From an uncultured Alphaproteobacteria bacterium (GTDB lineage Bacteria > Pseudomonadota > Alphaproteobacteria > Acetobacterales > Acetobacteraceae): a stretch of 64,000 nt of DNA. Below, in pieces: positions 42,511 through 56,396 of this stretch. The translations under genes and the position numbers were made by a program. Each line of letters begins with the position of its first letter. Positions within the stretch are counted from its first letter, which is position 1. The notes under the pieces are model-generated. The model saw only the letters and a list, made by a program, of their open reading frames with translations, did not search any database and had not been told where the DNA came from. The stretch covers positions 42,022 to 106,021 of the forward strand of contig CAVWVL010000003.1 in NCBI GenBank assembly GCA_963758415.1. The letters run 5' to 3'.

Positions 42511-42925
42511 TGCACGCTCCTTCCCGCGGTGTTGTCTCCTCAGCCACACGGCGCTGATTGCAACGAGTCCCGCGAGCCGATCATGATGAACCAATCGGCC
42601 TCACGCAACGATGCCCCGGGTCAAGCTTGTCGGCTGGCCGCTATAGCCATTGGTTCCGAGGTGCTGGTAGACTGGCCCCTAAGGCCCGACCGGACAATCT
42701 GGCGGCGATCGAATGGGGATTAGAACATGTCCACGAGTAACCGGGCCGTGGTGCCTGGCTGCGAACTCGGCGCGCACCGCCGCGAGTTCGTCCAGCATCG
42801 GTAATGGATTATCTGGCGCGGCGGCGGCTCGACCCTGAGGCCGAATCCCGTGTGCGGGGGCAGCATTTGCGCCGCCGCGCTCGATTTGTGAATGTCCTCT
42901 CCATCACAGCCGGGTGCGCTACCTG

Positions 42926-43927
42926 ATGTCGTCCCCACCTGCTTTCACCCTAAACCAGCTTCGCATTTTTCTCGCCGTGGCGCATTCGCGATCGCTTACG
43001 CATGCGGCAAAGATCCTGGATCAAACACAGCCCTCCTTGTCGCAGCACATCGCAAAGCTCGAAGACGCCGTTGGACAGCTTTTGTTCCAGCGTGGCCGCG
43101 GTCAGTTGGAACTGACGGATGCCGGTGCGTTCCTGTTGCGTCGTGCCGAGATCATCATGACCGAGGTCGATGAAGCGGCACGGGGGTTGGCGGACCACGC
43201 AAGGGGAGTCCGCGGCGTGCTGTCGGTTGGCATGGCGAGTTCGATCGCCCGGAATTTGTTGCCTGACGTGCAGTCGCGGTTGGCGGAGACATTCCCGGAC
43301 GTCGAGCTCGATGTGCACGAAGTGGCACCCGCCGAGGCCGTCGAGATGCTCTACACGCGGCAACTCACCGTTGCCGTGGTCTCCGCCGGATCACTCGCGA
43401 GCAGCAGCCTGACGTTCACCCAGACGGCAGTGTTCTCCGACCCCTATGTGTTGGCGGTGCCGCGCGGCCTCGACCTGTCCCGCGTCACCGATCCGGATTC
43501 GGAACTTGATGCCGACGAGCGGAGAATACTCAACAGTGTGGTTCAGTTCACGTTCGGCAGCACGTATCAATTGCGGATCGATGGTTGGTACCAGACCTTC
43601 TTGCCGGCCCATCGCGTGATCAGTCACGTCCGCTCCTACGAAATGGCTTTGGCAATGGTCCAGGCCAGACGCGGCGTAACGATTGTCCCGGCGCTCAGCG
43701 CACGCGTGAATGCCACGACCGGCTACGACGTGACGCTGTATAACGTCGGCATGGAAGATCGCCGGGTCGTTGCCTTGGTGCCGTCGCAATATCGCGCCAC
43801 GGAGCCGCAGGCAACGTTCATTGCTGCTCTTCGGGCGGCAGGCGACGCGATCCAGCCCCCCGAGGTTGAGCCGGCGCCGCCGTTTCTGCGTCCAGCCTTT
43901 TCCGTGGCCGAGGTGGCCGGGCAATAG
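42926..43927 (+). CDS. LysR-family transcriptional regulator
   Basis: LRIFLAVA..SLTHAA..L..TQPSLSQHIAKLE...LF.R; divergent from the monooxygenase operon. Confidence 0.93.
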   Translation: MSSPPAFTLNQLRIFLAVAHSRSLTHAAKILDQTQPSLSQHIAKLEDAVGQLLFQRGRGQLELTDAGAFLLRRAEIIMTEVDEAARGLADHARGVRGVLSVGMASSIARNLLPDVQSRLAETFPDVELDVHEVAPAEAVEMLYTRQLTVAVVSAGSLASSSLTFTQTAVFSDPYVLAVPRGLDLSRVTDPDSELDADERRILNSVVQFTFGSTYQLRIDGWYQTFLPAHRVISHVRSYEMALAMVQARRGVTIVPALSARVNATTGYDVTLYNVGMEDRRVVALVPSQYRATEPQATFIAALRAAGDAIQPPEVEPAPPFLRPAFSVAEVAGQ

Positions 43928-44081: not shown

Positions 44082-45158
44082 GTGTCAGGCCTGGCTCTCG
44101 AATTAGCTTATGCCAATCCGCCACAAGGTGAAATTTTGGCAATTCCGCGGCGCGACAGGCTATCCGAGAAATCGCGCCGCCAGACTTGGCGCCTGCTCGG
44201 CGCTTTACTGTCGATGCTCGCCGTGTCGACGGCGGCTGGCGCGAAAGGCACCGGGTATGTCTTCGTCAGCCATGAAAAGACCAACAACATAGCGGTGATT
44301 GACCCGAAACAAGACTATCGGATCATCAAGTGGATCGACACGTCCCACCGTCCGCGCGACATGAACTTCCGTCACGACCGGACCCAGCTACTCGTCGCTT
44401 GCGGCGACGATGATGTGATCGACGTGATCGATGTCGCAACGCTTCAGGTGGTCGATCATATCCCGACCGGCCCAAGCCCCGAAATGTTTGAACTCAGCCA
44501 CGATGAGGCCTCGCTCTACGTTTCGGATGAAGAAGCATCCGCGGTTCAGGAAATCAATATCAAGGATAAGATCATCGAGCGTGACATCGCGACCGGAGCT
44601 GAACCCGAGGGAATCGCTATAACCCCTGATGGAAAGACGCTTTACGTAACGTCCGAGGTGAGCGACATGGTCCATGTGGTCGACCTCGCGGCTGGAGCGG
44701 TGACGGACAACGTCGTGGTCGGCACTCGGCCTAGGCGCTTCCTTCTGCTACCCAATGGAAAAGAACTGTGGGTCTCGAACGAATTGTCAGGACAGGTCAC
44801 CATCATCGATCGCTCGACGAACCAGGTCTCCGCGACGATGAACTTCCTGCCGCCAGGATTCCGGCAGGTCGATGTGACGCCAGTTGGAATGACCATGACG
44901 AAGGACGGCGCCACCGCGATCATAACGCTCGGCCGAGCAAATTATGTCGCTTTCGTCGACACCGCCACGCGAAAGATCAAGGACTACGTACTGGTCGGGA
45001 ACCGGCCATGGGGCGTTGCGCTCAGCCCAGACGAAAAGACGCTTTACGTCGCAAACGGCCTGAGCGACGATCTCTCGATCGTCGACATGGCAAGTCACAA
45101 ATCAATCCGGGCCGTTCCAGTCGGACGGGTGCCGCATACGGTTCTAGTCGATGACTAG
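44082..45158 (+). CDS. YVTN beta-propeller protein, PQQ-catabolism-associated type (start uncertain)
   Basis: Repeated YVS/YVT/WVSNE/YVAN blades with G..P motifs; signal-peptide-like segment. Confidence 0.85.
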   Translation: MSGLALELAYANPPQGEILAIPRRDRLSEKSRRQTWRLLGALLSMLAVSTAAGAKGTGYVFVSHEKTNNIAVIDPKQDYRIIKWIDTSHRPRDMNFRHDRTQLLVACGDDDVIDVIDVATLQVVDHIPTGPSPEMFELSHDEASLYVSDEEASAVQEINIKDKIIERDIATGAEPEGIAITPDGKTLYVTSEVSDMVHVVDLAAGAVTDNVVVGTRPRRFLLLPNGKELWVSNELSGQVTIIDRSTNQVSATMNFLPPGFRQVDVTPVGMTMTKDGATAIITLGRANYVAFVDTATRKIKDYVLVGNRPWGVALSPDEKTLYVANGLSDDLSIVDMASHKSIRAVPVGRVPHTVLVDD

Positions 45159-46362
45159 ACTTTTGCGCGCGCTCCTGATCGCGGTGGCAATGACATTCGA
45201 GATCGGTGCGGTTTTGTCACCCACCGTTGGCCATTCCGAACCAGCCCCGGCGAAGCCGATGAAGCTCGGTTACGTCGAGCTCGAAGATGACCCGCGTTAC
45301 GCGAACAAGGGTGCCATCGGGGGCATCCAGTTCATTGATCTCGGGCGGCCATATCAAGCTAGTCAGGTCGCGCTTGAAGATGCGCGCTCGATCGGCCGCG
45401 TCACCAAGATCGACTTCAGTATGGAGAAGGTCACCGGTAAGTCGGTTGACGAGCTCTTCCAGCAAACCAGTGCCTGGATCGATTCCGGCGACATTCATTT
45501 CATCCTCGCCGATCTTCCGGCGCCCGCGCTGCTGGACCTGGCACGCCGGCTCAAGGACAAGCCGGTGCTTCTGTTCAACGTCTCGGCTCCCGACGATTCG
45601 CTGCGCGGCGCCAACTGCATGTCGAATGTGGCTCACACCTATCCCAGCGAGGCGATGCTGTCGGACGCCCTGATACAGTATCTCGACACCAAGGGATGGA
45701 TGCAGATTCTTGTCCTGCAGGGGCCTACCCCCGAAGATGCCGCCTTGGTGACATCGTTGCAGCATTCGGCGAAGAAATTCGGTGCGAAGATCGTCGACAC
45801 CAAGCCGTTCGTACTCTCCACCGATCCTCACAACCGCACGCAGAGTAATATCGTTCTGATGACGGAGGGTCGTTACGACGTCGTCTATGTCGCGGACAGC
45901 AGCGGCGAGTTCGGTCGCTACGTTCCGTATCAAACCAGTCTTCCCCGGCCGGTCGTCGGAAGTGCCGGACTGGTGCCAACGGCGTGGTCATGGAGCTGGG
46001 ACCGCGACGCCGCCGTCCAACTGCAACATCGATACCAGAAATCGGCGCCGGACCGCCGCATGAACGGCGCCGATTGGGCGGCGTGGGAAGCGGTGAAGGC
46101 AATTACGCAAGCAACCGTGCGATCGAAATCGACAGATTTTGATCCGGTGAAGGGGTTTCTGCTGAGCGATAAGCTCACGCTTGATACCGTGAAAGGCAAT
46201 CCCGGCAGCTTCAGGGCGTGGGATCATCAACTCCGGGCACCGGTGCTGCTCAGCACGGCCGACGCGGTGATTGCCCGGGCGCCGTTACCACAGTTTCTAC
46301 ATCAGAAAGACGTGCTGGATACGCTTGGGATTGACGCGCCCGAAAGTGCATGCCGGTTCTGA
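45151..46362 (+). CDS. ABC substrate-binding protein of the PQQ-alcohol dehydrogenase-associated type
   Basis: Signal peptide; FNVSAPDDSLRGANC, HT.PS.AMLSDAL.QYL, SFRAWDHQLR.PVLL. Confidence 0.82.
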   Translation: MTRLLRALLIAVAMTFEIGAVLSPTVGHSEPAPAKPMKLGYVELEDDPRYANKGAIGGIQFIDLGRPYQASQVALEDARSIGRVTKIDFSMEKVTGKSVDELFQQTSAWIDSGDIHFILADLPAPALLDLARRLKDKPVLLFNVSAPDDSLRGANCMSNVAHTYPSEAMLSDALIQYLDTKGWMQILVLQGPTPEDAALVTSLQHSAKKFGAKIVDTKPFVLSTDPHNRTQSNIVLMTEGRYDVVYVADSSGEFGRYVPYQTSLPRPVVGSAGLVPTAWSWSWDRDAAVQLQHRYQKSAPDRRMNGADWAAWEAVKAITQATVRSKSTDFDPVKGFLLSDKLTLDTVKGNPGSFRAWDHQLRAPVLLSTADAVIARAPLPQFLHQKDVLDTLGIDAPESACRF

Positions 46363-46410: not shown

Positions 46411-47142
46411 ATGACGAAGACACTGCGGAGTGTGAGTTGGCTGGCTACGTTTTTGGCCTGCATGGCACTGGCTACTCTTCCTCGGGCACAGGAGCGGTCG
46501 AAACGATTCAGCGTCTGGGATATTCACCTCGGCGACACCGCGTCCTCCATCCCGAACGAATACGTAAACTACGCATGCGGTACCAATGGAGGTCCGCCCT
46601 CGGTCCCACTGCCAAATTTTGCGTCATTCAAGAAGTGTAAACCGAACACGAACGGGTTGTACGAAGTCTATTTCGAATATGACGATGAGCTGGAATACCA
46701 GGCGCGGGCGCTGGAGAACCGTGCCGAAATCATGCGATATGCCGGAACCACCGTATTCGAGTTCCCGATCGTCGCGTCGGTGCTGTTCGATGAATCTGGC
46801 CGGGTTCGCGGTGAACGCATGGTGACGGACGCACGCCAGCAGACATCACGTGATCGCCTGGAGTTTTGGGAACTGGCGAATTTCCTGCGGCATAATTTCG
46901 GGGATGATACGTGGACCTGCAAAGACCTGCCGCCGGATGACGGAGAGGCGCCCGCCGGAACAAGATTCCTTAAAAACCATTGCGAAAAGACCGTCTCTGG
47001 AAAGCGCCTGATCCTCGAACAGCGCTTTTTCCAAAAGAAGGGTCAGCAGTTCATCGACCCCCAATCGGGCAGGCCGCAGCCGCAAGCGTTCGAGAGTGCG
47101 ACGCGCTTCGAAATGTACGACGCCGACTTGCCGTCGCGGTGA
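46411..47142 (+). CDS. Secreted hypothetical protein with four Cys
   Basis: Signal peptide; ACGTNGGPP..F..C, VYFEYDDELEY; co-oriented with the binding protein. Confidence 0.7.
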   Translation: MTKTLRSVSWLATFLACMALATLPRAQERSKRFSVWDIHLGDTASSIPNEYVNYACGTNGGPPSVPLPNFASFKKCKPNTNGLYEVYFEYDDELEYQARALENRAEIMRYAGTTVFEFPIVASVLFDESGRVRGERMVTDARQQTSRDRLEFWELANFLRHNFGDDTWTCKDLPPDDGEAPAGTRFLKNHCEKTVSGKRLILEQRFFQKKGQQFIDPQSGRPQPQAFESATRFEMYDADLPSR

Positions 47143-47151
47143 TGCTCCGCC

Positions 47152-47976
47152 TTACTGCCCCATGGTGCCATCGACGAGAACCGCACCCTGTGTTTTCATT
47201 CCGACGGTCACGGCTCCGTCGAGATTAGCTCCCTCCAGACGTGAACCGCGAAAATCGCCGTCCGTCAGGTCAGCGCCGCCGAAATCCGCTTTGAGAAAAT
47301 CCGTCTGACGGGCTGAGGCAGGCGACATTTTGGCGTTCCTGAAGCGCGCGCCGACAAAGCTGGCGCCGTCAGCGATGATCGCCGAGAGATCGCACCGACT
47401 GAGATTGGCACCGGTGAAATTCGCCATCTTCACATTGGCGTGGGCGAGGTCGCAGTCCGCCAACTCAGCGTCGACGGCGTTCACCCGGGACAGATCGACA
47501 TCCCGAAGCACGGAGCGGGTCAACCGGGAATGTCCCATGTGCGCCCGGATCATAACGGCGCCATCGAGCTGAGCGCCGCTCAAATCCGCGGCGTACAGCA
47601 GTGCCTCACTCAGATCGGCCCCCATCAGCTCGGCTCGTTTCATATCCGCCTTGTCGAGGTTCGCGTATCGCAAGTTGGCATGGCCAAGTTTTGCTTTGGT
47701 TAGTCGCGCGGCGTGCAGGACGGCATCGCTCAAATCTGCGCCGGTGAGATCGGCTCCACTGAGGTCACGACGTTTCAGGTTGACCCCCCGCAGATCGCAG
47801 CCGGGGCAGTCTTTGCTTGTACCGGCCAGGAACGCTTGCCGTTCGGGTGAATTCCTTACGTCTTGCGGCGCTTCGTCGGCAATCGCCGCCGCGGAACCGA
47901 ATAACGCGAGCGCCGCCCCGTATCGCAGCAGCAAGCGAAGCCCACGCCTGCCGAGATGAATTTCTTGAAACCGCAT
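47152..47976 (-). CDS. Pentapeptide-repeat protein (PedD-like), secreted
   Basis: CPGCDL followed by many A(D/N)LxG pentapeptides. Confidence 0.9.
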   Translation of the reverse strand: MRFQEIHLGRRGLRLLLRYGAALALFGSAAAIADEAPQDVRNSPERQAFLAGTSKDCPGCDLRGVNLKRRDLSGADLTGADLSDAVLHAARLTKAKLGHANLRYANLDKADMKRAELMGADLSEALLYAADLSGAQLDGAVMIRAHMGHSRLTRSVLRDVDLSRVNAVDAELADCDLAHANVKMANFTGANLSRCDLSAIIADGASFVGARFRNAKMSPASARQTDFLKADFGGADLTDGDFRGSRLEGANLDGAVTVGMKTQGAVLVDGTMGQ

Positions 47977-48146: not shown

Positions 48147-48686
48147 ATGTATCGTGACAAATCGCGTCTCTCCGCCGCCACCTCGGCGCACACCGGCGCG
48201 GCCGGGATCGTGGCGTTGGCGGTCGTTGCTTGCCTCACCGGGCGCGCGACTGCCCAGGAGAACCGTGTCGCCGAAGGGCAAAGGATTTGGGTGGAAAAGG
48301 CGCAGTGCCAGGAGTGTCACGGCTGGGCCGGCAATGGTGAAAGTTCCGTAATCCATTCTGAGGGCAGGGCGCCCTCGCTTCGTCTCACGCAGCTCACCCG
48401 TGACCAGATCAGAATGACTATACAGTGCGGCAGACCGGGAACACCGATGCCCCACTTCGACCGATTTGCCTACACGGACAAGCGTTGCTACGACATGACT
48501 GAAGAGGATCTCGGTGACAGCGTTCCGAATCGAGGCGCGATCACGCTGCAGTCTTACGAGATCGATGCCTTGGCCGATTACATTGCGGTCAAGATCAAAG
48601 GCGCCGGGCCAGTGACGCGGGGCCAGTGCGCTGACTTCTTCAAGGCCGAAGCTGGCAGCCGTTGTAAGAGATATCCCGAACAATAA
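48147..48686 (+). CDS. c-type cytochrome (monoheme)
   Basis: CQECHG heme motif, GRPGTPMP axial Met region, signal peptide. Confidence 0.85.
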   Translation: MYRDKSRLSAATSAHTGAAGIVALAVVACLTGRATAQENRVAEGQRIWVEKAQCQECHGWAGNGESSVIHSEGRAPSLRLTQLTRDQIRMTIQCGRPGTPMPHFDRFAYTDKRCYDMTEEDLGDSVPNRGAITLQSYEIDALADYIAVKIKGAGPVTRGQCADFFKAEAGSRCKRYPEQ

Positions 48687-48791: not shown

Positions 48792-50534
48792 CTACAGCGC
48801 GAAAACGTACAACATCGACGTGTTCTGCACGTCCTTATAGCCAGGCGTCTTATTCAACATATCCCGCGCGGGAACATTCCCCCCAATCAATACGGCAACA
48901 TATTGTTTGCCGTTTACTGAGTAAGTCATTGGTGGCGCCGAGCCAAGTGAGCCAGCATTGAAGGTCCATAGCGGCTTCAGCGTCACATCGTCCAAGGCGT
49001 AAACAGTGCCGTCGACAGTCGTGGTAAACACCAGGCCACCGGCTGTGGAGGTCACACCGGAATAAACTGCTCGCCGTAACGTCTGCTGCACGGATTTCTT
49101 TCCGGTCGCGGGGTCCAAGGCCGTCACGCTTCCCTTGACCTCTTCAGCGTTCGCCGCGGCGCCGCCGAGCCAGAAGTAGCCACTGGCGTCGTTCGACGGA
49201 TCGACGGTGATATTCGAGCAGCCTTCGATGCCTCCGCCGTAAGAAAGATGAGTGCGGGCACTATAGGTGGTCGGGAAAAAGTTAACACCGCCCTGAATGT
49301 TCGGGCACCCTTCGAGCTTACCTTGTTCCCGTCTGGACGCCTTGCCGATCTTGTACGTTTGCAGATCCTTGTTGGGGTTATACTCGACCGGCTTGCCAGT
49401 CTTCGGGTCAATTCCGTCCGTCCAGTTGACCTTCTCGGCATATTGCTGGCCCGAGATGAACTGTCCGTTGGTGCGGTCCAGCGTGTAGAAGAACCCATTG
49501 CGACCGAAATGAGCGACGACTTTCCGATCCTCGCCGTTCAACTTGGTGTCGACTAGTTGCTGAATGCCGATTTCATCATAGTCCAGGAAGTCACCGGGCG
49601 TATACTGGAAGTACCATTTCATCTTGCCGCTGTCGATGTCAAAGGCAACGGTGGAATTGGTGAACAGATTGTCGCCAGGGCGGTATTCCGGATCATACAT
49701 GGGAACCGGCTGTCCAGTTCCCCATATCGTTAGCTTGGTGACCGGATCGTAGGAGCCGGTCTGCCAGAAGGAACCACCGCCATGCTTCCATGCCTCCGTA
49801 TTGCCCTTCCAGGTGTCGCCACCTGGCTCCCCGGGGGCCGGTATCGAGTAGGTTCGCCACAAATGCTCGCCAGTGTCGACGTTGAAGGCGTCGATATGGG
49901 CGCGGGCGCCACGGTCACCGCCCGAACCGCCGACGATCAGCTTGTCATCGACGACGAGAGGCGCCGCCGTCAATGAGGAATAGGATGTCGCGGGATCGTC
50001 GAACTGAACTGTCTTGACCAGTTCACCGGTATCGGCCTTAGTCCAAAGAATCTTATCGTCAGCAGTTACCGAAATTACGAAGTTCTTGTACAGAGCCACG
50101 CCGCGGTTCGAAGGTATCCACACGTCGGCCTTGTTTGTTCCTGGATCCATCAGCCAGGTGATCCGGGCATCCGACGGATCGCGCACGTCAATTCTGTAGA
50201 CCGCGCCGAAGCCGTCAACTACGTACATGAAGCCATCATTGACCAGGGGCGTGCTTTGATGGCCACCCAGAGCCATGAGCCCGACCCCGTTCACACCCCC
50301 AAGCGCCACGGTGAACGCCACGCGAAGGTTCTTCACATTGTCCTTGTTGATCTGGTCAAGTTCCGAATAGCGATGCGAAGAGTAGTCTTTGTTCACCATC
50401 AGCCAGTTCTGCGGCTCCTTGTCGGGGTTCGACAGCCGCTGCGGCGTAACATCCGCGGCCAGTGCCGACAGGGATGTTGCAGCGAGTATCGTGGTCGCCA
50501 GAAGGGCGGCACGCGAAACCATTGTACCACGCAT
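48792..50534 (-). CDS. PQQ-dependent dehydrogenase (methanol/ethanol family fold, atypical active site)
   Basis: Signal peptide; W-docking repeats; NRGVA, TPGDFLDYD, GRNGFFY.LDRT.G, PMTYSVNGKQYVAV. Confidence 0.92.
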   Translation of the reverse strand: MRGTMVSRAALLATTILAATSLSALAADVTPQRLSNPDKEPQNWLMVNKDYSSHRYSELDQINKDNVKNLRVAFTVALGGVNGVGLMALGGHQSTPLVNDGFMYVVDGFGAVYRIDVRDPSDARITWLMDPGTNKADVWIPSNRGVALYKNFVISVTADDKILWTKADTGELVKTVQFDDPATSYSSLTAAPLVVDDKLIVGGSGGDRGARAHIDAFNVDTGEHLWRTYSIPAPGEPGGDTWKGNTEAWKHGGGSFWQTGSYDPVTKLTIWGTGQPVPMYDPEYRPGDNLFTNSTVAFDIDSGKMKWYFQYTPGDFLDYDEIGIQQLVDTKLNGEDRKVVAHFGRNGFFYTLDRTNGQFISGQQYAEKVNWTDGIDPKTGKPVEYNPNKDLQTYKIGKASRREQGKLEGCPNIQGGVNFFPTTYSARTHLSYGGGIEGCSNITVDPSNDASGYFWLGGAAANAEEVKGSVTALDPATGKKSVQQTLRRAVYSGVTSTAGGLVFTTTVDGTVYALDDVTLKPLWTFNAGSLGSAPPMTYSVNGKQYVAVLIGGNVPARDMLNKTPGYKDVQNTSMLYVFAL

Positions 50535-51016
50535 AATTTTCCTCCCGTTTCTTGCTTCGAGCTCATTGAACCGAGCCTGATACTTTCGGGACTTGCTGAA
50601 CCTTTCGCGCCTGCGTGCTCTTGCTCGGTTCAATCCGACATGTCTGCTGACGCACGCGCAGCGAACAGGCGCACGGACAACAAGTTCGTTGATCTCGTAA
50701 CACAGGCTCGCCGCGAGATCACATTCCGAGTGTTCTTTTTACTTTTGCGGATGTCAAGAGCCACCAGCTCGGCCGTGGCTCCGCCTAGCGACATTGGCTG
50801 CTGTTTGCGCAGCCCGCCGCCTCGCGCGCGAGTCTTTCGGGCCGTACCGGCAATGCAACGGGCCATCCCCGCGTGGCGCATGGCGGGCAAACTCGCAGGC
50901 CCACACCTCCTCGAAAGGCGCCGATCTGTTCGGAATATTCTTTGTTACCTGATTGCCATCAGTCGCGCTGGTACCGGCCGGAACACCGCGGGGAAAAGCC
51001 CAGCGCCTGGCTGAAC

Positions 51017-51454
51017 TCAACCCATCGGAAGCGGTGTGCCATCAAGTTGTTCGGCCCGCTCCACTTCGATCAGCACCGCAAAACCCTTCTTATCGGGGTC
51101 TCGATCCTTCTCCGGTTGGATGAGCCGCGTCCAGACCTCCTCGTAGACCGCTCCCGACTTAAAAATTCGCGCCGAGCCATAGAAGCGGGCGATGCCGCCT
51201 TTCGGAAGGACACCGTCGACGCGAAGCTGCGGTTTGCGAAAGTAAACCGTAACCTTTGTGCCGTCGGTGAGGTTCTCGGTCGTCGAGCCTTTCCCGCGTT
51301 CCCACAAGGAGAAATGCCCATCGTCGAACACCTGCGTGCTACCCCGCGGCGTCACTTGCGCATAGCCGCTCGGCAGCATCGTCGCGATCAGGCAAACATC
51401 ATTGGGGAACGCGGAATTGATGTGCGGTTGAAGAACCTTCGGGATTCCCGGCAT
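51017..51454 (-). CDS. Pyridoxamine 5'-phosphate oxidase-like (split-barrel) protein
   Basis: CLIAT...G.AQVTPRGS, T.ENL....KVTVYF, RFYG.A. Confidence 0.75.
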   Translation of the reverse strand: MPGIPKVLQPHINSAFPNDVCLIATMLPSGYAQVTPRGSTQVFDDGHFSLWERGKGSTTENLTDGTKVTVYFRKPQLRVDGVLPKGGIARFYGSARIFKSGAVYEEVWTRLIQPEKDRDPDKKGFAVLIEVERAEQLDGTPLPMG

Positions 51455-52820: not shown

Positions 52821-54326
52821 CTAGCCGCGCTGTGGCACGTTTAGGTTGACAGTGACATTCTTCCTTTGGGTGAAGCTGTCGAGCATTCCCTCCAGGGAGA
52901 ACTCCCGCCCGATGCCGCTCTGCTTGTAGCCACCGTACGAGTGCCCGGGCTGTTGCCCCAGGCCCTGATTGACCTGCACCCAGCCAGATTCGATCGCGTG
53001 CGCGGCACGCAGGGCGCTGCCGATTTCGCGCGTCCACACATAGGCGGCGAGACCGTAATGACTGTCGTTGGCCATTCGAATCGACTCCGCCTCGTCACGC
53101 CAGGGAATCGCCACCAGCACCGGCCCGAAGATCTCCTCGCGCGCCAAACGCCAGTCGTTGGAGGTGTCGGCGAAAACGGTGGGGATCGCGAAGTAACCTT
53201 CGCTCAAGGGTCCCTCCGTCGGCGGCAGGCCGCCGAACACCAGGCGTGCATCCTTTCGTTTCAGTCCCTCATCGACGTAGCCACAGACTTTGCGAAACTG
53301 CTTCTCGTTGATGATGCTGCCGATGTCGCTGGCCTCGTCCAGTGGATCGCCGAGCGTCAGCGCCCGGGTCTTCCGGCTGAGCTTTTCGAGGAAACTGTCG
53401 AAGATATCGGCGTGCAGGAACAGCCGGGAGCCAGCCGTGCAGGACTGACTTTGGCGGGTAAAGCGCATGCCGGCGATGACACCGTCCACGACCCAGTCCT
53501 CATCCACATCGGGATAGACGATCGAGGGGCTTTTGCCGCCGAGTTCGAGTGACACCGGCACGATGCGATCGGCCGCGGCGCGCATGATGATCTTGCCCAC
53601 CTCGGTTGACCCGGTGAACGACAGCTTCCGAATGGCCGGGTGCCGCGCCAGCGGTCCGCCGCACTCTTCGCCAGTCCCAGTCAGCACGTTCAGCACGCCG
53701 GGGGGAAGCACTTGCTGGCAGATTTCGGCCATCAGCAATACGCCGAGCGGAGCGTCCTCGGCGGTTTTCAGCACCATGGTGTTGCCGGCGCACAGTGCGG
53801 GCGCGATCTTCAGTGCCGCCAGCAGAACCGGCGCGTTCCATGGAATGATGGCCCCGACTACACCCAGCGGCTCGCGCCTGGTGTAGCTGAGAACCTGTTC
53901 GCCCAGCGGTATCGTTTCGCCTTTCAGTTCGCCGGCCAGGCCGCCGAAATAGCGGAAGATATCGGCGGAAAGCGTTGCCTCCGGGCGAGCCTGGGTGCGC
54001 AGCGCGTTGCCCGTCTCCTCAGCGATGACGCGGGCTAGTTCTTCGATACGCGCCTCCAGCACCTCGGCGATGCGCAGCAGCATTCGGCCGCGCTGCCGCG
54101 GGGGCACCTTTTTCCAGTCCGGAAACGCGCTCTCGGCGGCCTTGGCAGCGCGATCGACATCCTCTGCGGCGCCACGCGGGATCGATGCGATCGTTCTGCG
54201 TTTCGCCGGATTCTCCACCGCGAGCACGGCGCCCGAGGCGCTGTCGACCCATGCCCCGTTTATCAACATCCGGGCATGGCGGTGCTCGCCGGTGCCGATG
54301 GGACGCGTGAGTTCAGTTGTCGACAT
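52821..54326 (-). CDS. NAD-dependent aldehyde dehydrogenase
   Basis: IIPWNAP, SFTGSTEVG, LELGGKSP, QSCTAGSR, EEIFGPV. Confidence 0.95.
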   Translation of the reverse strand: MSTTELTRPIGTGEHRHARMLINGAWVDSASGAVLAVENPAKRRTIASIPRGAAEDVDRAAKAAESAFPDWKKVPPRQRGRMLLRIAEVLEARIEELARVIAEETGNALRTQARPEATLSADIFRYFGGLAGELKGETIPLGEQVLSYTRREPLGVVGAIIPWNAPVLLAALKIAPALCAGNTMVLKTAEDAPLGVLLMAEICQQVLPPGVLNVLTGTGEECGGPLARHPAIRKLSFTGSTEVGKIIMRAAADRIVPVSLELGGKSPSIVYPDVDEDWVVDGVIAGMRFTRQSQSCTAGSRLFLHADIFDSFLEKLSRKTRALTLGDPLDEASDIGSIINEKQFRKVCGYVDEGLKRKDARLVFGGLPPTEGPLSEGYFAIPTVFADTSNDWRLAREEIFGPVLVAIPWRDEAESIRMANDSHYGLAAYVWTREIGSALRAAHAIESGWVQVNQGLGQQPGHSYGGYKQSGIGREFSLEGMLDSFTQRKNVTVNLNVPQRG

Positions 54327-54926: not shown

Positions 54927-55631
54927 CTATCGCGGGCGCTCTGTTCGGCCGAGCATGACGTTCAGTCTTTTGCCGATCCATTCCGACAGCAGCAATCCCA
55001 CCAAAGCCAGCGTCAGCGAGACCACCGACAGTTCGGCCGCTTTTGCCTCTCCCCCAGGTACCTGAAGCGCGGAGTAGATCGCCAGTGGCAGCGTCTGGGT
55101 CTGGCCGGGAATGTTGGCGGCGAAGGTGATCACCGCGCCGAACTCACCGAGACACGTCGCGTAGGCAACAATGCCGCCCACCAGGATGCCAGGCGATGCC
55201 AGCGGCAGGGTAATGTTGCACAGCCGGTCCAGCCGGCCGGCCCCGAGGGTGCGCGCCGCCTGTTCCAGACCCGGATCGACCGCATCCAAGGACAGCCGCA
55301 CCGACCTCACCATGATCGGAAAGGTCATTACGGCGCAGGCAAGACTTGCTCCTGCGGTGGTGAACACCAGGCGAATTCCGAACCAGTGCTCGAGGATCGC
55401 GCCGACCGGTCCGCGGACACCGAACACGATCAGCAACAGCCAGCCGGTGACCACGGGCGGCAATACCATCGGCAGATGAACAAGGGCGTTCAGCAGAGGC
55501 CGGCCGGGAAAGCGATAACGCGCCAGCAGCCACGCCATCAGGACCGCGACAGGCAACCCGAAACCAACCGCACGCGCCGCGACCGACAATGTGAGCCAGA
55601 CGGCCTGCCATTCTTCCGAAGTGAGGGTCAG
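54927..55631 (-). CDS. modB: Molybdate ABC transporter permease
   Basis: LVHLPMVLPPVVTG, LEQAARTLGA, LGEFGA, TQTLPLAIY; the homologous N-terminus LTLTSEEWQAVWLTL begins at CTG 55631. Confidence 0.92.
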   Translation of the reverse strand: MTLTSEEWQAVWLTLSVAARAVGFGLPVAVLMAWLLARYRFPGRPLLNALVHLPMVLPPVVTGWLLLIVFGVRGPVGAILEHWFGIRLVFTTAGASLACAVMTFPIMVRSVRLSLDAVDPGLEQAARTLGAGRLDRLCNITLPLASPGILVGGIVAYATCLGEFGAVITFAANIPGQTQTLPLAIYSALQVPGGEAKAAELSVVSLTLALVGLLLSEWIGKRLNVMLGRTERPR

Positions 55632-56396
55632 CTATTCCACCTTGAAGCCACGCCGCGCAAACGTTGAACGCGCCTCCGGGCCTGCGAGGAACGCCAGCAG
55701 GGCGCGGGCTTCGGGCGTATCGCCGGACCTGGTCACGGCGAACGGATATGAAATCGGATCGTGGCTGTCGGCCGGGAAAATTCCAGCGACCATCACGGCT
55801 TTTGATACCGCCGCATCGGTTCCGTAAACGATACCGGCCGGAGCCTCGCCGCGTTCCACCAGCAACAGGCCCGACCTGACATCGTCAGTCCGTGCCAGTC
55901 TGGAGCTGACGCTATTCCAGAGCCCTAGTTTCTTCAGCGCCTGCTCAGCGTAAATACCAACCGGCACATGCGCGGGATCACCCACCGCCAGCCTGCCCGT
56001 CGGCCCAAGCAGAGCTGACAGGTCGAAGCTGGGTCCGATTGTGACGTGCTCAGGCTTGTCCGCCGGTACCACCAGGACAAGATCGTTACCGAGCAAATCC
56101 TTGCGGGTTTCGTTGGCGATCAGCTTCTTGTCGACGAGGTAGTTCATCCATTTCTCGTCGGCGGACGCGAAGACGTTGACCGGGGCACTCTGCTCGATCT
56201 GCCGCGCCAGTGTCGAGCTTGAGCCAAACGACATCCGAAGCGGTTGATGACCCGCTGCCACCCACTGGCCCGAAACATCCTTCATCGCGTCCGTCAGGCT
56301 GGCGGCGGCAAAGACCGTCAGTTCCTGCGCTCGTGACGCCAGCGGCACGAGCAGGACGCACAGCAGCAGCAGGACACGCATAAATCGAACTCTCAT
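55632..56396 (-). CDS. modA: Molybdate ABC transporter substrate-binding protein
   Basis: VFAAASL, FGSSSTLARQI, FASAD, LLGNDLVL, GDPAHVPVG.YA, GIVYGTDA. Confidence 0.95.
   Translation of the reverse strand: MRVRFMRVLLLLCVLLVPLASRAQELTVFAAASLTDAMKDVSGQWVAAGHQPLRMSFGSSSTLARQIEQSAPVNVFASADEKWMNYLVDKKLIANETRKDLLGNDLVLVVPADKPEHVTIGPSFDLSALLGPTGRLAVGDPAHVPVGIYAEQALKKLGLWNSVSSRLARTDDVRSGLLLVERGEAPAGIVYGTDAAVSKAVMVAGIFPADSHDPISYPFAVTRSGDTPEARALLAFLAGPEARSTFARRGFKVE

Follow-up and report, generated by a model that had tools for sequence, protein, structure and literature searches.

Metal choice in pyrroloquinoline quinone (PQQ)-dependent dehydrogenases is at present read from one residue, the additional Asp of the D-x-D motif, and what the vicinal disulfide contributes to electron transfer to cytochrome c is still argued. 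The canonical sites have been named 2D-1E-1N for lanthanides and 1D-1E-1N for Ca (bioRxiv 10.64898/2026.07.14.738520), and the same work predicts in silico, by AlphaFold 3 and quantum-mechanical methods, that 3D-1N and 3D-1E are non-canonical lanthanide sites, with 3D-1N at the lanthanide reference tier. In Pseudomonas the ped core comprises the pentapeptide-repeat protein PedD (encoded beside pedE), the dehydrogenases PedE and PedH, the cytochrome c PedF, the binding protein PedA1 and the YVTN propeller PedA2, and in ExaA electron transfer to cytochrome c550 has been connected with the Cys-Cys ring (PMC12997753). Here we analyse a PQQ-dependent dehydrogenase gene located at 48792..50534, on the reverse strand, of a 64,000-nucleotide stretch of DNA (the window, to which positions refer unless prefixed otherwise; GenBank assembly GCA_963758415.1, contig CAVWVL010000003.1, positions 42,022 to 106,021) from an uncultured alphaproteobacterium of the Acetobacteraceae. 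The clade to which it belongs is a natural variant of the family, with two of the four protein ligands of the metal exchanged for their one-carbon homologues, the disulfide gone and the cytochrome partner kept, and from the sequence comparisons that follow we favour, on balance, a functional, probably lanthanide-dependent, cytochrome-c-linked periplasmic alcohol or aldehyde dehydrogenase.

Ligand exchanges in a conserved propeller

In a HMMER alignment to PedH (PDB 6zcv), with high posterior probabilities at all motifs, PCCDVINRG of PedH corresponds to DVWIPSNRG in the dehydrogenase (residues 137-145), where Cys is absent, AGGEFG corresponds to SGGDRG, GTGNPAP to GTGQPVP and WDFDG to LDYDE. 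MAFFT alignments with PedH, MxaF (4tqo), XoxF (4mae, 6dam) and three quinohaemoprotein alcohol dehydrogenases (ADHs), the sequences of which were rebuilt from PDB alignments, gave the same motif columns. By these alignments V138-W139 (50118..50123, on the reverse strand like all dehydrogenase codons given here) stands at the place of the vicinal Cys-Cys that precedes NRG in PedH, MxaF and XoxF; D207 of the SGGD motif (49914..49916) replaces the metal-ligand Glu (PedH E199, MxaF E177), and Q275 of GTGQP (49710..49712) the metal-ligand Asn. The segment L317-D318-Y319-D320-E321 (49572..49586; the codons of DFLDYD span 49575-49592) contains the catalytic Asp D318, the lanthanide-type extra Asp D320 two residues beyond it, Leu in place of Trp at 317 and the conserved Glu E321. 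The equivalent of MxaF R331, which we take from established knowledge of that enzyme to be a PQQ contact, is R345 (GRNG, 49500..49502), and the PQQ-contact residues R144, S204-G205-G206, W257, R345 and N418 are all kept together with the catalytic D318. An initial annotation of the gene had proposed the lanthanide-type Asp, the missing Cys-Cys and the Glu-to-Asp and Asn-to-Gln exchanges; its open reading frame (ORF) and the codon positions that it gave for D207, Q275 and DFLDYD are exact, and all four features are borne out by HMMER against PedH and by MAFFT, the columns being non-canonical in both. Misalignment as the source of the apparently rewired site was rejected, since the HMMER alignment and both MAFFT alignments are in accord and the motifs on either side are conserved.

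The ligand set is a fixed property of the close relatives. Across the 120 nearest homologues in the database (74-100% identity) D207, Q275, D318, D320, E321 and R345 are each invariant (120/120), the D-x-D motif being present throughout as D318-Y-D320; no Cys pair occurs in any of them, position 138 being V, M, F or L and position 139 F, W, M or L, and never Cys. Neither the Glu nor the Asn ligand of the canonical 2D-1E-1N site is present in our alignments or in these homologues, Asp207 and Gln275 standing in their place. We also collected 133 PQQ ORFs from named genomes (77 loci); the 23 that show 65% identity or more all have the identical motif state, including Gln in the Q275 column (23/23), where relatives of 45-52% identity have Asn. 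The genome itself carries four intact paralogues of the clade (80-84% identity), with pairwise ratios of non-synonymous to synonymous substitution rates (dN/dS) of 0.06-0.11; the dehydrogenase is under strong purifying selection, and the invariance in homologues together with the low dN/dS indicates that the motif state is due neither to chance nor to decay. That this is a conserved clade with changed first-shell ligands, as the initial annotation supposed, is upheld by the 120/120 and 23/23 invariance, and as far as we found the clade is biochemically uncharacterised. Ligand chemistry would, we infer, remain that of PedH, i.e. three carboxylates and one amide, with the geometry shifted. In the lid segment, which takes the place of the Cys-Cys loop, the four paralogues read VWIP, MFLA, LFIA and MFTA, differences which suggest that their substrates may differ.

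The gene product (580 residues; the coordinates include the stop codon) begins MRGTMVSRAALL... and carries a Sec-type signal peptide at residues 1-26 (50457..50534), with a predicted cleavage site between SLSALA and ADV; inspection of its sequence found no twin-arginine motif, and the AlphaFold 2 confidence (pLDDT) is below 50 at residues 1-24. Sequence and Pfam searches identified neither a membrane anchor nor a haem domain. The Pfam family PF01011 (PQQ; glucose/ethanol/alcohol dehydrogenase beta-propeller) is matched at 197.9 bits, above its gathering threshold of 26.7, and a HMMER search of PDB sequences returned PedH (6zcv/6zcw) as the top match (E 2e-76), followed by XoxF, the type II quinohaemoprotein ADHs and MxaF. 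The AlphaFold 2 model (pLDDT 87.2, pTM 0.89) again finds PedH on top in Foldseek (E 8e-51, TM 0.84/0.86), confirming the 8-bladed fold. Membership of the membrane-bound glucose/quinate/shikimate dehydrogenases (TIGR03074) was rejected, the score being 136.2 bits against a cut-off of 832.65 and the protein having a signal peptide only, with no N-terminal membrane domain. That the protein is an 'empty' propeller without cofactor, or a paralogue in decay with no redox function, might be suspected from the alteration of three classical hallmarks, from a score of 455.7 bits for TIGR03075 (PQQ-dependent dehydrogenase, methanol/ethanol family), which is under the curated cut-off of 480.05 as are those of the three other close paralogues (435.9-462.2 bits), and from a partial match to TIGR04528 (acido-empty-quinoprotein group A; 366.9 bits). 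The TIGR04528 score is, however, far under the cut-off of 650 bits, the PQQ contacts and the catalytic Asp are invariant, dN/dS is about 0.1, the gene and that of a cytochrome c belong to a conserved module and the genome contains PQQ synthesis genes, and we have rejected an empty quinoprotein or pseudogene as very improbable indeed.

Older and younger changes in the clade

In a maximum-likelihood tree computed from 71 rows by quick search, with a midpoint root, the query lies inside a 28-row superclade with a Shimodaira-Hasegawa-like approximate likelihood-ratio (SH-aLRT) support of 99. Cys-Cys is missing from every member of this superclade, and position 207 is mostly Asp (21/28 rows, versus Glu in 32/38 rows of the canonical group). 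The references with solved structures all belong to the second major group of the tree (SH-aLRT 99) and none to the query superclade; the nearest neighbours of the superclade are Glu/Asn enzymes that bear Cys-Cys, namely P0131, P0134 and the genome's own 45% paralogue at C3:770232. The relatives of 45-52% identity, from Xanthobacteraceae, Betaproteobacteria and other metagenome-assembled genomes (MAGs), combine the absence of Cys-Cys with GGD, GNP and DYDE motifs, i.e. a 3D-1N site. At loci L040-L091, from Xanthobacteraceae and other MAGs, such 3D-1N relatives are arrayed in tandem, with two to four copies or more in a 14-kb locus, and homologous cytochrome c, pentapeptide and 243-residue protein genes often accompany them; this points to large paralogue expansions of the superclade lacking Cys-Cys.

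From these distributions, loss of the Cys-Cys and the Glu-to-Asp exchange are by sequence old traits of the wider superclade, and only the Asn-to-Gln exchange, giving a site that we denote 3D-1Q, and the Trp317-to-Leu exchange are specific to the Rhodopila-type subclade to which the query belongs. We therefore rejected the view that all three changes are unique to the query clade, because two of them belong to the superclade; of the clade-defining changes given in the initial annotation, Asn-to-Gln stands and is joined by Leu at 317, and the Cys-Cys loss and Glu-to-Asp do not. Elsewhere in the superclade Gln at the 275 position is also found in three 50%-identity clusters (P0121, P0123 and P0126), and the 50%-identity representatives comprise four with Asp and Gln versus one with Glu and Gln, numbers too small for a link between Gln and Asp to be significant.

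Most named carriers of the clade are Acetobacteraceae/Rhodopila MAGs from soil and peat, and the clade is abundant in MAGs of this family from acidic soil and peat; it was found in only 2 of the 81 genera sampled in the same family. In culture the enzyme is represented by Rhodopila globiformis DSM 161, with two copies (81%), and by Alsobacter ponti (65%), and its presence in the former makes experiments feasible.

The genome under study contains 11 intact PQQ-ADH paralogues, all 11 with D-x-D. Four further paralogues (C3:774045, C3:776548, C3:511741 and C9:57621) have no Cys-Cys and retain Glu and Asn, from which it follows that more than one loss of the disulfide has occurred within the family. 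Three more PQQ-ADH genes (C7:185060-186671, C11:946270-947788 and C11:952139-953688) are split over two frames or interrupted by an in-frame TGA, and could be pseudogenes or assembly errors; the first of these has the canonical XoxF motifs MCCDTVNRG, GGEFG, GSGNPSTWNP and TPHDEWDYDG.

A probable cytochrome c partner and its module

Adjacent to the dehydrogenase gene and convergent with it lies the gene for a monohaem c-type cytochrome of 179 residues with a signal peptide (48147..48686, forward strand), which matches PF13442 (E 1.7e-8) and contains a CQECH haem-binding motif (48306-48320) and a GTPMPHF Met-ligand motif. Paralogues of this cytochrome (66-73% identity) are encoded at both other loci of the clade in the genome, and a homologue is present in 40 of the 77 related loci. 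The sister paralogue with Cys-Cys at C3:770232 likewise has a cytochrome homologue of its own (41%) and, at C3:772726, a 26%-identical homologue of the 243-residue protein described below; as the cytochrome family also stands beside this Cys-Cys-bearing enzyme, the partnership seems to predate the disappearance of the disulfide. Its adjacent and convergent gene, its CxxCH and Met motifs, its copies at paralogous loci and its occurrence in 40/77 loci are our grounds for regarding the cytochrome as the probable electron acceptor. The initial annotation had the disulfide serving electron transfer to cytochrome c, a role that needs qualifying here, since a cytochrome c gene lies beside the dehydrogenase at every clade locus in the genome and loss of the disulfide need not mean that the cytochrome route was abandoned.

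The adjacent cytochrome might nevertheless not be the acceptor, in which case electrons would pass, in the absence of the disulfide ring, to another periplasmic carrier or to a quinone-linked system. Consistent with this, the ring that the query lacks has in ExaA been tied to c550 (PMC12997753), and models and structures of PedF, XoxG and cL gave no match to the neighbouring cytochrome: no NCBIfam family was hit at E<=1e-4, and XoxG, cL and c550 structures were not among its PDB matches. The recurrence of a cytochrome copy at each paralogous locus, its synteny in related genomes and its association with the Cys-Cys-bearing sister speak for the cytochrome as partner, as does the lack of a membrane anchor or haem domain in the dehydrogenase, and we regard a different acceptor as improbable. 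Three Cys of the cytochrome besides those of CxxCH (in IQCGRP, in KRCYD and in a QC near the C-terminus) are conserved in all four genomic copies and may form a disulfide.

Beyond the cytochrome gene the module continues with a pentapeptide-repeat protein in a PedD-like position (47152..47976, reverse strand; NCBIfam pentapeptide matches; syntenic in 29/77 loci) and a conserved periplasmic protein of 243 residues (46411..47142, forward strand; AlphaFold 2 pLDDT 80.7; 657 homologues; syntenic in 27/77 loci). The latter gave no Pfam, NCBIfam or PDB fold match, the best Foldseek hit having E 0.049 and TM 0.22, and may be an accessory or maturation factor. There follow, both on the forward strand, a periplasmic substrate-binding protein of a PQQ-ADH-associated ATP-binding cassette (ABC) system, of PedA1 type (45151..46362; TIGR03863 411.9 bits versus a cut-off of 413.6; syntenic in 15 loci), and a YVTN beta-propeller associated with PQQ-dependent catabolism, of PedA2 type (44229..45158; TIGR03866 306 bits versus a cut-off of 287.3; syntenic in 13 loci), the start codon of which is uncertain. 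The order dehydrogenase, cytochrome c, pentapeptide-repeat protein, 243-residue protein, substrate-binding protein and propeller recurs in at least 14 related loci, including those of R. globiformis DSM 161 and A. ponti. A LysR-family regulator (42914..43927, forward strand; PF00126 and PF03466), with a homologue in 3 related loci, stands at the module edge and is weakly linked to it.

Upstream of the dehydrogenase a non-coding gap of 480 bp (50535-51016) precedes a PNPOx-like gene of 145 residues (51017-51454), and an NAD(P)-dependent aldehyde dehydrogenase is encoded further upstream on the same strand (52821..54326, reverse; aldehyde dehydrogenase families at 425-450 bits, none over cut-off). 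It is a possible second step of the pathway and its membership of the module is uncertain. The modB- and modA-like genes of a molybdate ABC transporter beyond it (54927-56396, reverse strand), judged by eye, have no evident link to the module.

Elsewhere in the genome a PQQ island at C3:770-787 kb contains three PQQ-ADHs, pqqE (539 bits) and a TIGR03864 ABC ATPase, the only one of the genome (C3:785896), which lies approximately 690 kb from the module. Near this island a lanmodulin-like periplasmic protein with four EF-hands is encoded (C3:792492-792956, reverse strand); it scores 128.7 bits for NF053806 against a cut-off of 135 and matches PDB 6mi5 (E 3.5e-28). Pro at position 2 of the EF loops, a feature typical of LanM, is absent from it. 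A PqqE-like radical-SAM ORF at C5:157018-158220 (reverse strand), with only 46.8 bits for TIGR02109, lies approximately 1.5 kb from the cytochrome c of a tandem paralogue pair (C5:160314-164146). Taken together, D-x-D in all 11 paralogues, pqqE, the TIGR03864 ATPase and the lanmodulin-like gene suggest that the organism handles lanthanides, which does not imply that the query enzyme binds one.

Metal choice and comparison with known systems

In the mechanism that we propose, PQQ and a metal ion would be held at the centre of the propeller by D207, Q275, D318 (the catalytic base) and D320, i.e. the 3D-1Q site. With the D207 arm one methylene shorter and the opposite Q275 arm one longer, the metal would be displaced towards D207, and the Asn-to-Gln exchange may have followed the older Glu-to-Asp as an adjustment at a second site. 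An alcohol or aldehyde would be oxidised by hydride transfer to C5 of PQQ, and the adjacent 179-residue cytochrome c would return the resulting PQQH2 to PQQ by accepting its electrons singly, in two steps. The hydrophobic V138-W139 (M/F in relatives) would cover PQQ at the usual site of the Cys-Cys ring, and the pentapeptide-repeat protein, the 243-residue protein and the PedA1/PedA2-type binding protein and propeller would serve maturation, metal supply or both.

Our best guess for the metal is a lanthanide, and we hold it with moderate confidence, because D-x-D is invariant in the clade and present in all 11 paralogues, because the genome encodes a lanmodulin-like protein, pqqE and the TIGR03864 ATPase, because PedA1A2BC is required for lanthanide-dependent growth of P. 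putida at low La (PMC6839425), and because 3D-1N sites are predicted to be lanthanide sites (10.64898/2026.07.14.738520). The native metal of a functional enzyme could alternatively be Ca2+ or another divalent ion, Asp207 being too short to act as a ligand and leaving an effective site of two Asp and an amide. D-x-D alone is no proof of lanthanide dependence, a caution voiced in the initial annotation and rightly so; of the 36 two-Asp domains predicted to be Ca-preferring, 25 are 2D-1N sites without a coordinating Glu, and Ca-preferring enzymes emerge within lanthanide clades (10.64898/2026.07.14.738520). That an acidic residue is kept at 207 in 120/120 homologues, with no drift, argues on the other hand for a ligand role; 3D-1N sites rank with the lanthanide references in the same preprint, the whole PQQ-ADH complement of the genome has D-x-D, and a lanmodulin-like gene and, within the module, PedA1/PedA2-type genes are present. 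The choice between Ca and lanthanide turns on whether Asp207 reaches the metal, and we consider Ca2+ or another divalent ion rather unlikely.

Several points nevertheless count against a lanthanide-dependent, cytochrome-linked dehydrogenase. Biochemically confirmed lanthanide enzymes comprise only XoxF and type 2b (ExaF/PedH) (PMC11996626), and a preference for Ca is predicted for 2D-1N sites (10.64898/2026.07.14.738520), which this one would resemble in behaviour should D207 be too short to touch the metal. The geometry of the metal site is read from sequence only, and the TIGR03075 score is, as noted, below its cut-off. The cytochrome is by profiles and structures of none of the PedF, XoxG or cL types, and its partnership with the dehydrogenase is drawn from synteny alone; the neighbouring aldehyde dehydrogenase and a short-chain dehydrogenase/reductase are not syntenic in the 77 related loci.

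A bolder and more tentative proposal, which we put forward as a possibility at less than even weight, is that 3D-1Q is a distinct, selected geometry in which Gln compensates for the Glu-to-Asp exchange and which confers a metal preference unlike that of XoxF and PedH, for other lanthanides or another ion, and that the clade, with its non-PedF, non-XoxG cytochrome, shows the Cys-Cys ring to be dispensable for electron transfer from quinoprotein to cytochrome. In either case the clade offers a natural test of metal choice and of electron passage in PQQ dehydrogenases. Were it lanthanide-dependent, the lanthanide enzymes would extend beyond XoxF and ExaF/PedH, and motif-based metagenome surveys would be improved.

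Among known systems the solved soluble PQQ dehydrogenases 4cvb, 7wmd/7wmk, 9m2c, 22vi and 4mh1, which we take to lack the disulfide ring, are also 8-bladed PQQ propellers but much more distant (E 1e-30 to 1e-37, 22-25% identity), with sugars or deoxynivalenol as substrates. XoxF and MxaF (4mae, 6dam, 6oc5, 1w6s, 4tqo) resemble the query in fold and in catalytic machinery (E 1e-64 to 8e-69, TM approximately 0.81), and XoxF has the D-Y-D motif in common with the query; they are more distant than PedH, however, and have the Cys-Cys, Glu and Asn that the query does not, together with XoxG/cL-type cytochromes and XoxJ/MxaJ, none of which was found at the query locus. PedH/ExaF (PQQ-ADH type 2b; 6zcv, 6zcw) is the best match by both sequence and structure, at approximately 31-34% identity, and is likewise a soluble periplasmic 8-bladed propeller with D-x-D, the catalytic Asp and the same PQQ-contact residues. 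Pentapeptide-repeat, cytochrome c and PedA1/PedA2-type genes lie nearby in both. A ped/exa-type cluster has a pentapeptide-repeat protein (PedD) and a cytochrome c550 (PedF/ExaB) encoded beside the dehydrogenase; a pentapeptide-repeat gene and a cytochrome c gene are adjacent in the query module, and its cytochrome, which matches no c550 structure, is probably of another family. The query differs further in having no Cys-Cys ring, Asp for Glu, Gln for Asn and Leu for the Trp that precedes the catalytic Asp, and in its position in a separate superclade (SH-aLRT 99). Closest in ligand set are the 3D-1N sites (10.64898/2026.07.14.738520), which have the same Glu-to-Asp exchange and three Asp ligands, both assignments being computational only; the query subclade has in addition Gln for Asn, and the preprint is mainly concerned with eukaryotic and fungal proteins. 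Whilst 3D-1N sites have thus already been named and predicted in silico to bind lanthanides, a 3D-1Q site is mentioned neither in that preprint nor in the other literature searched.

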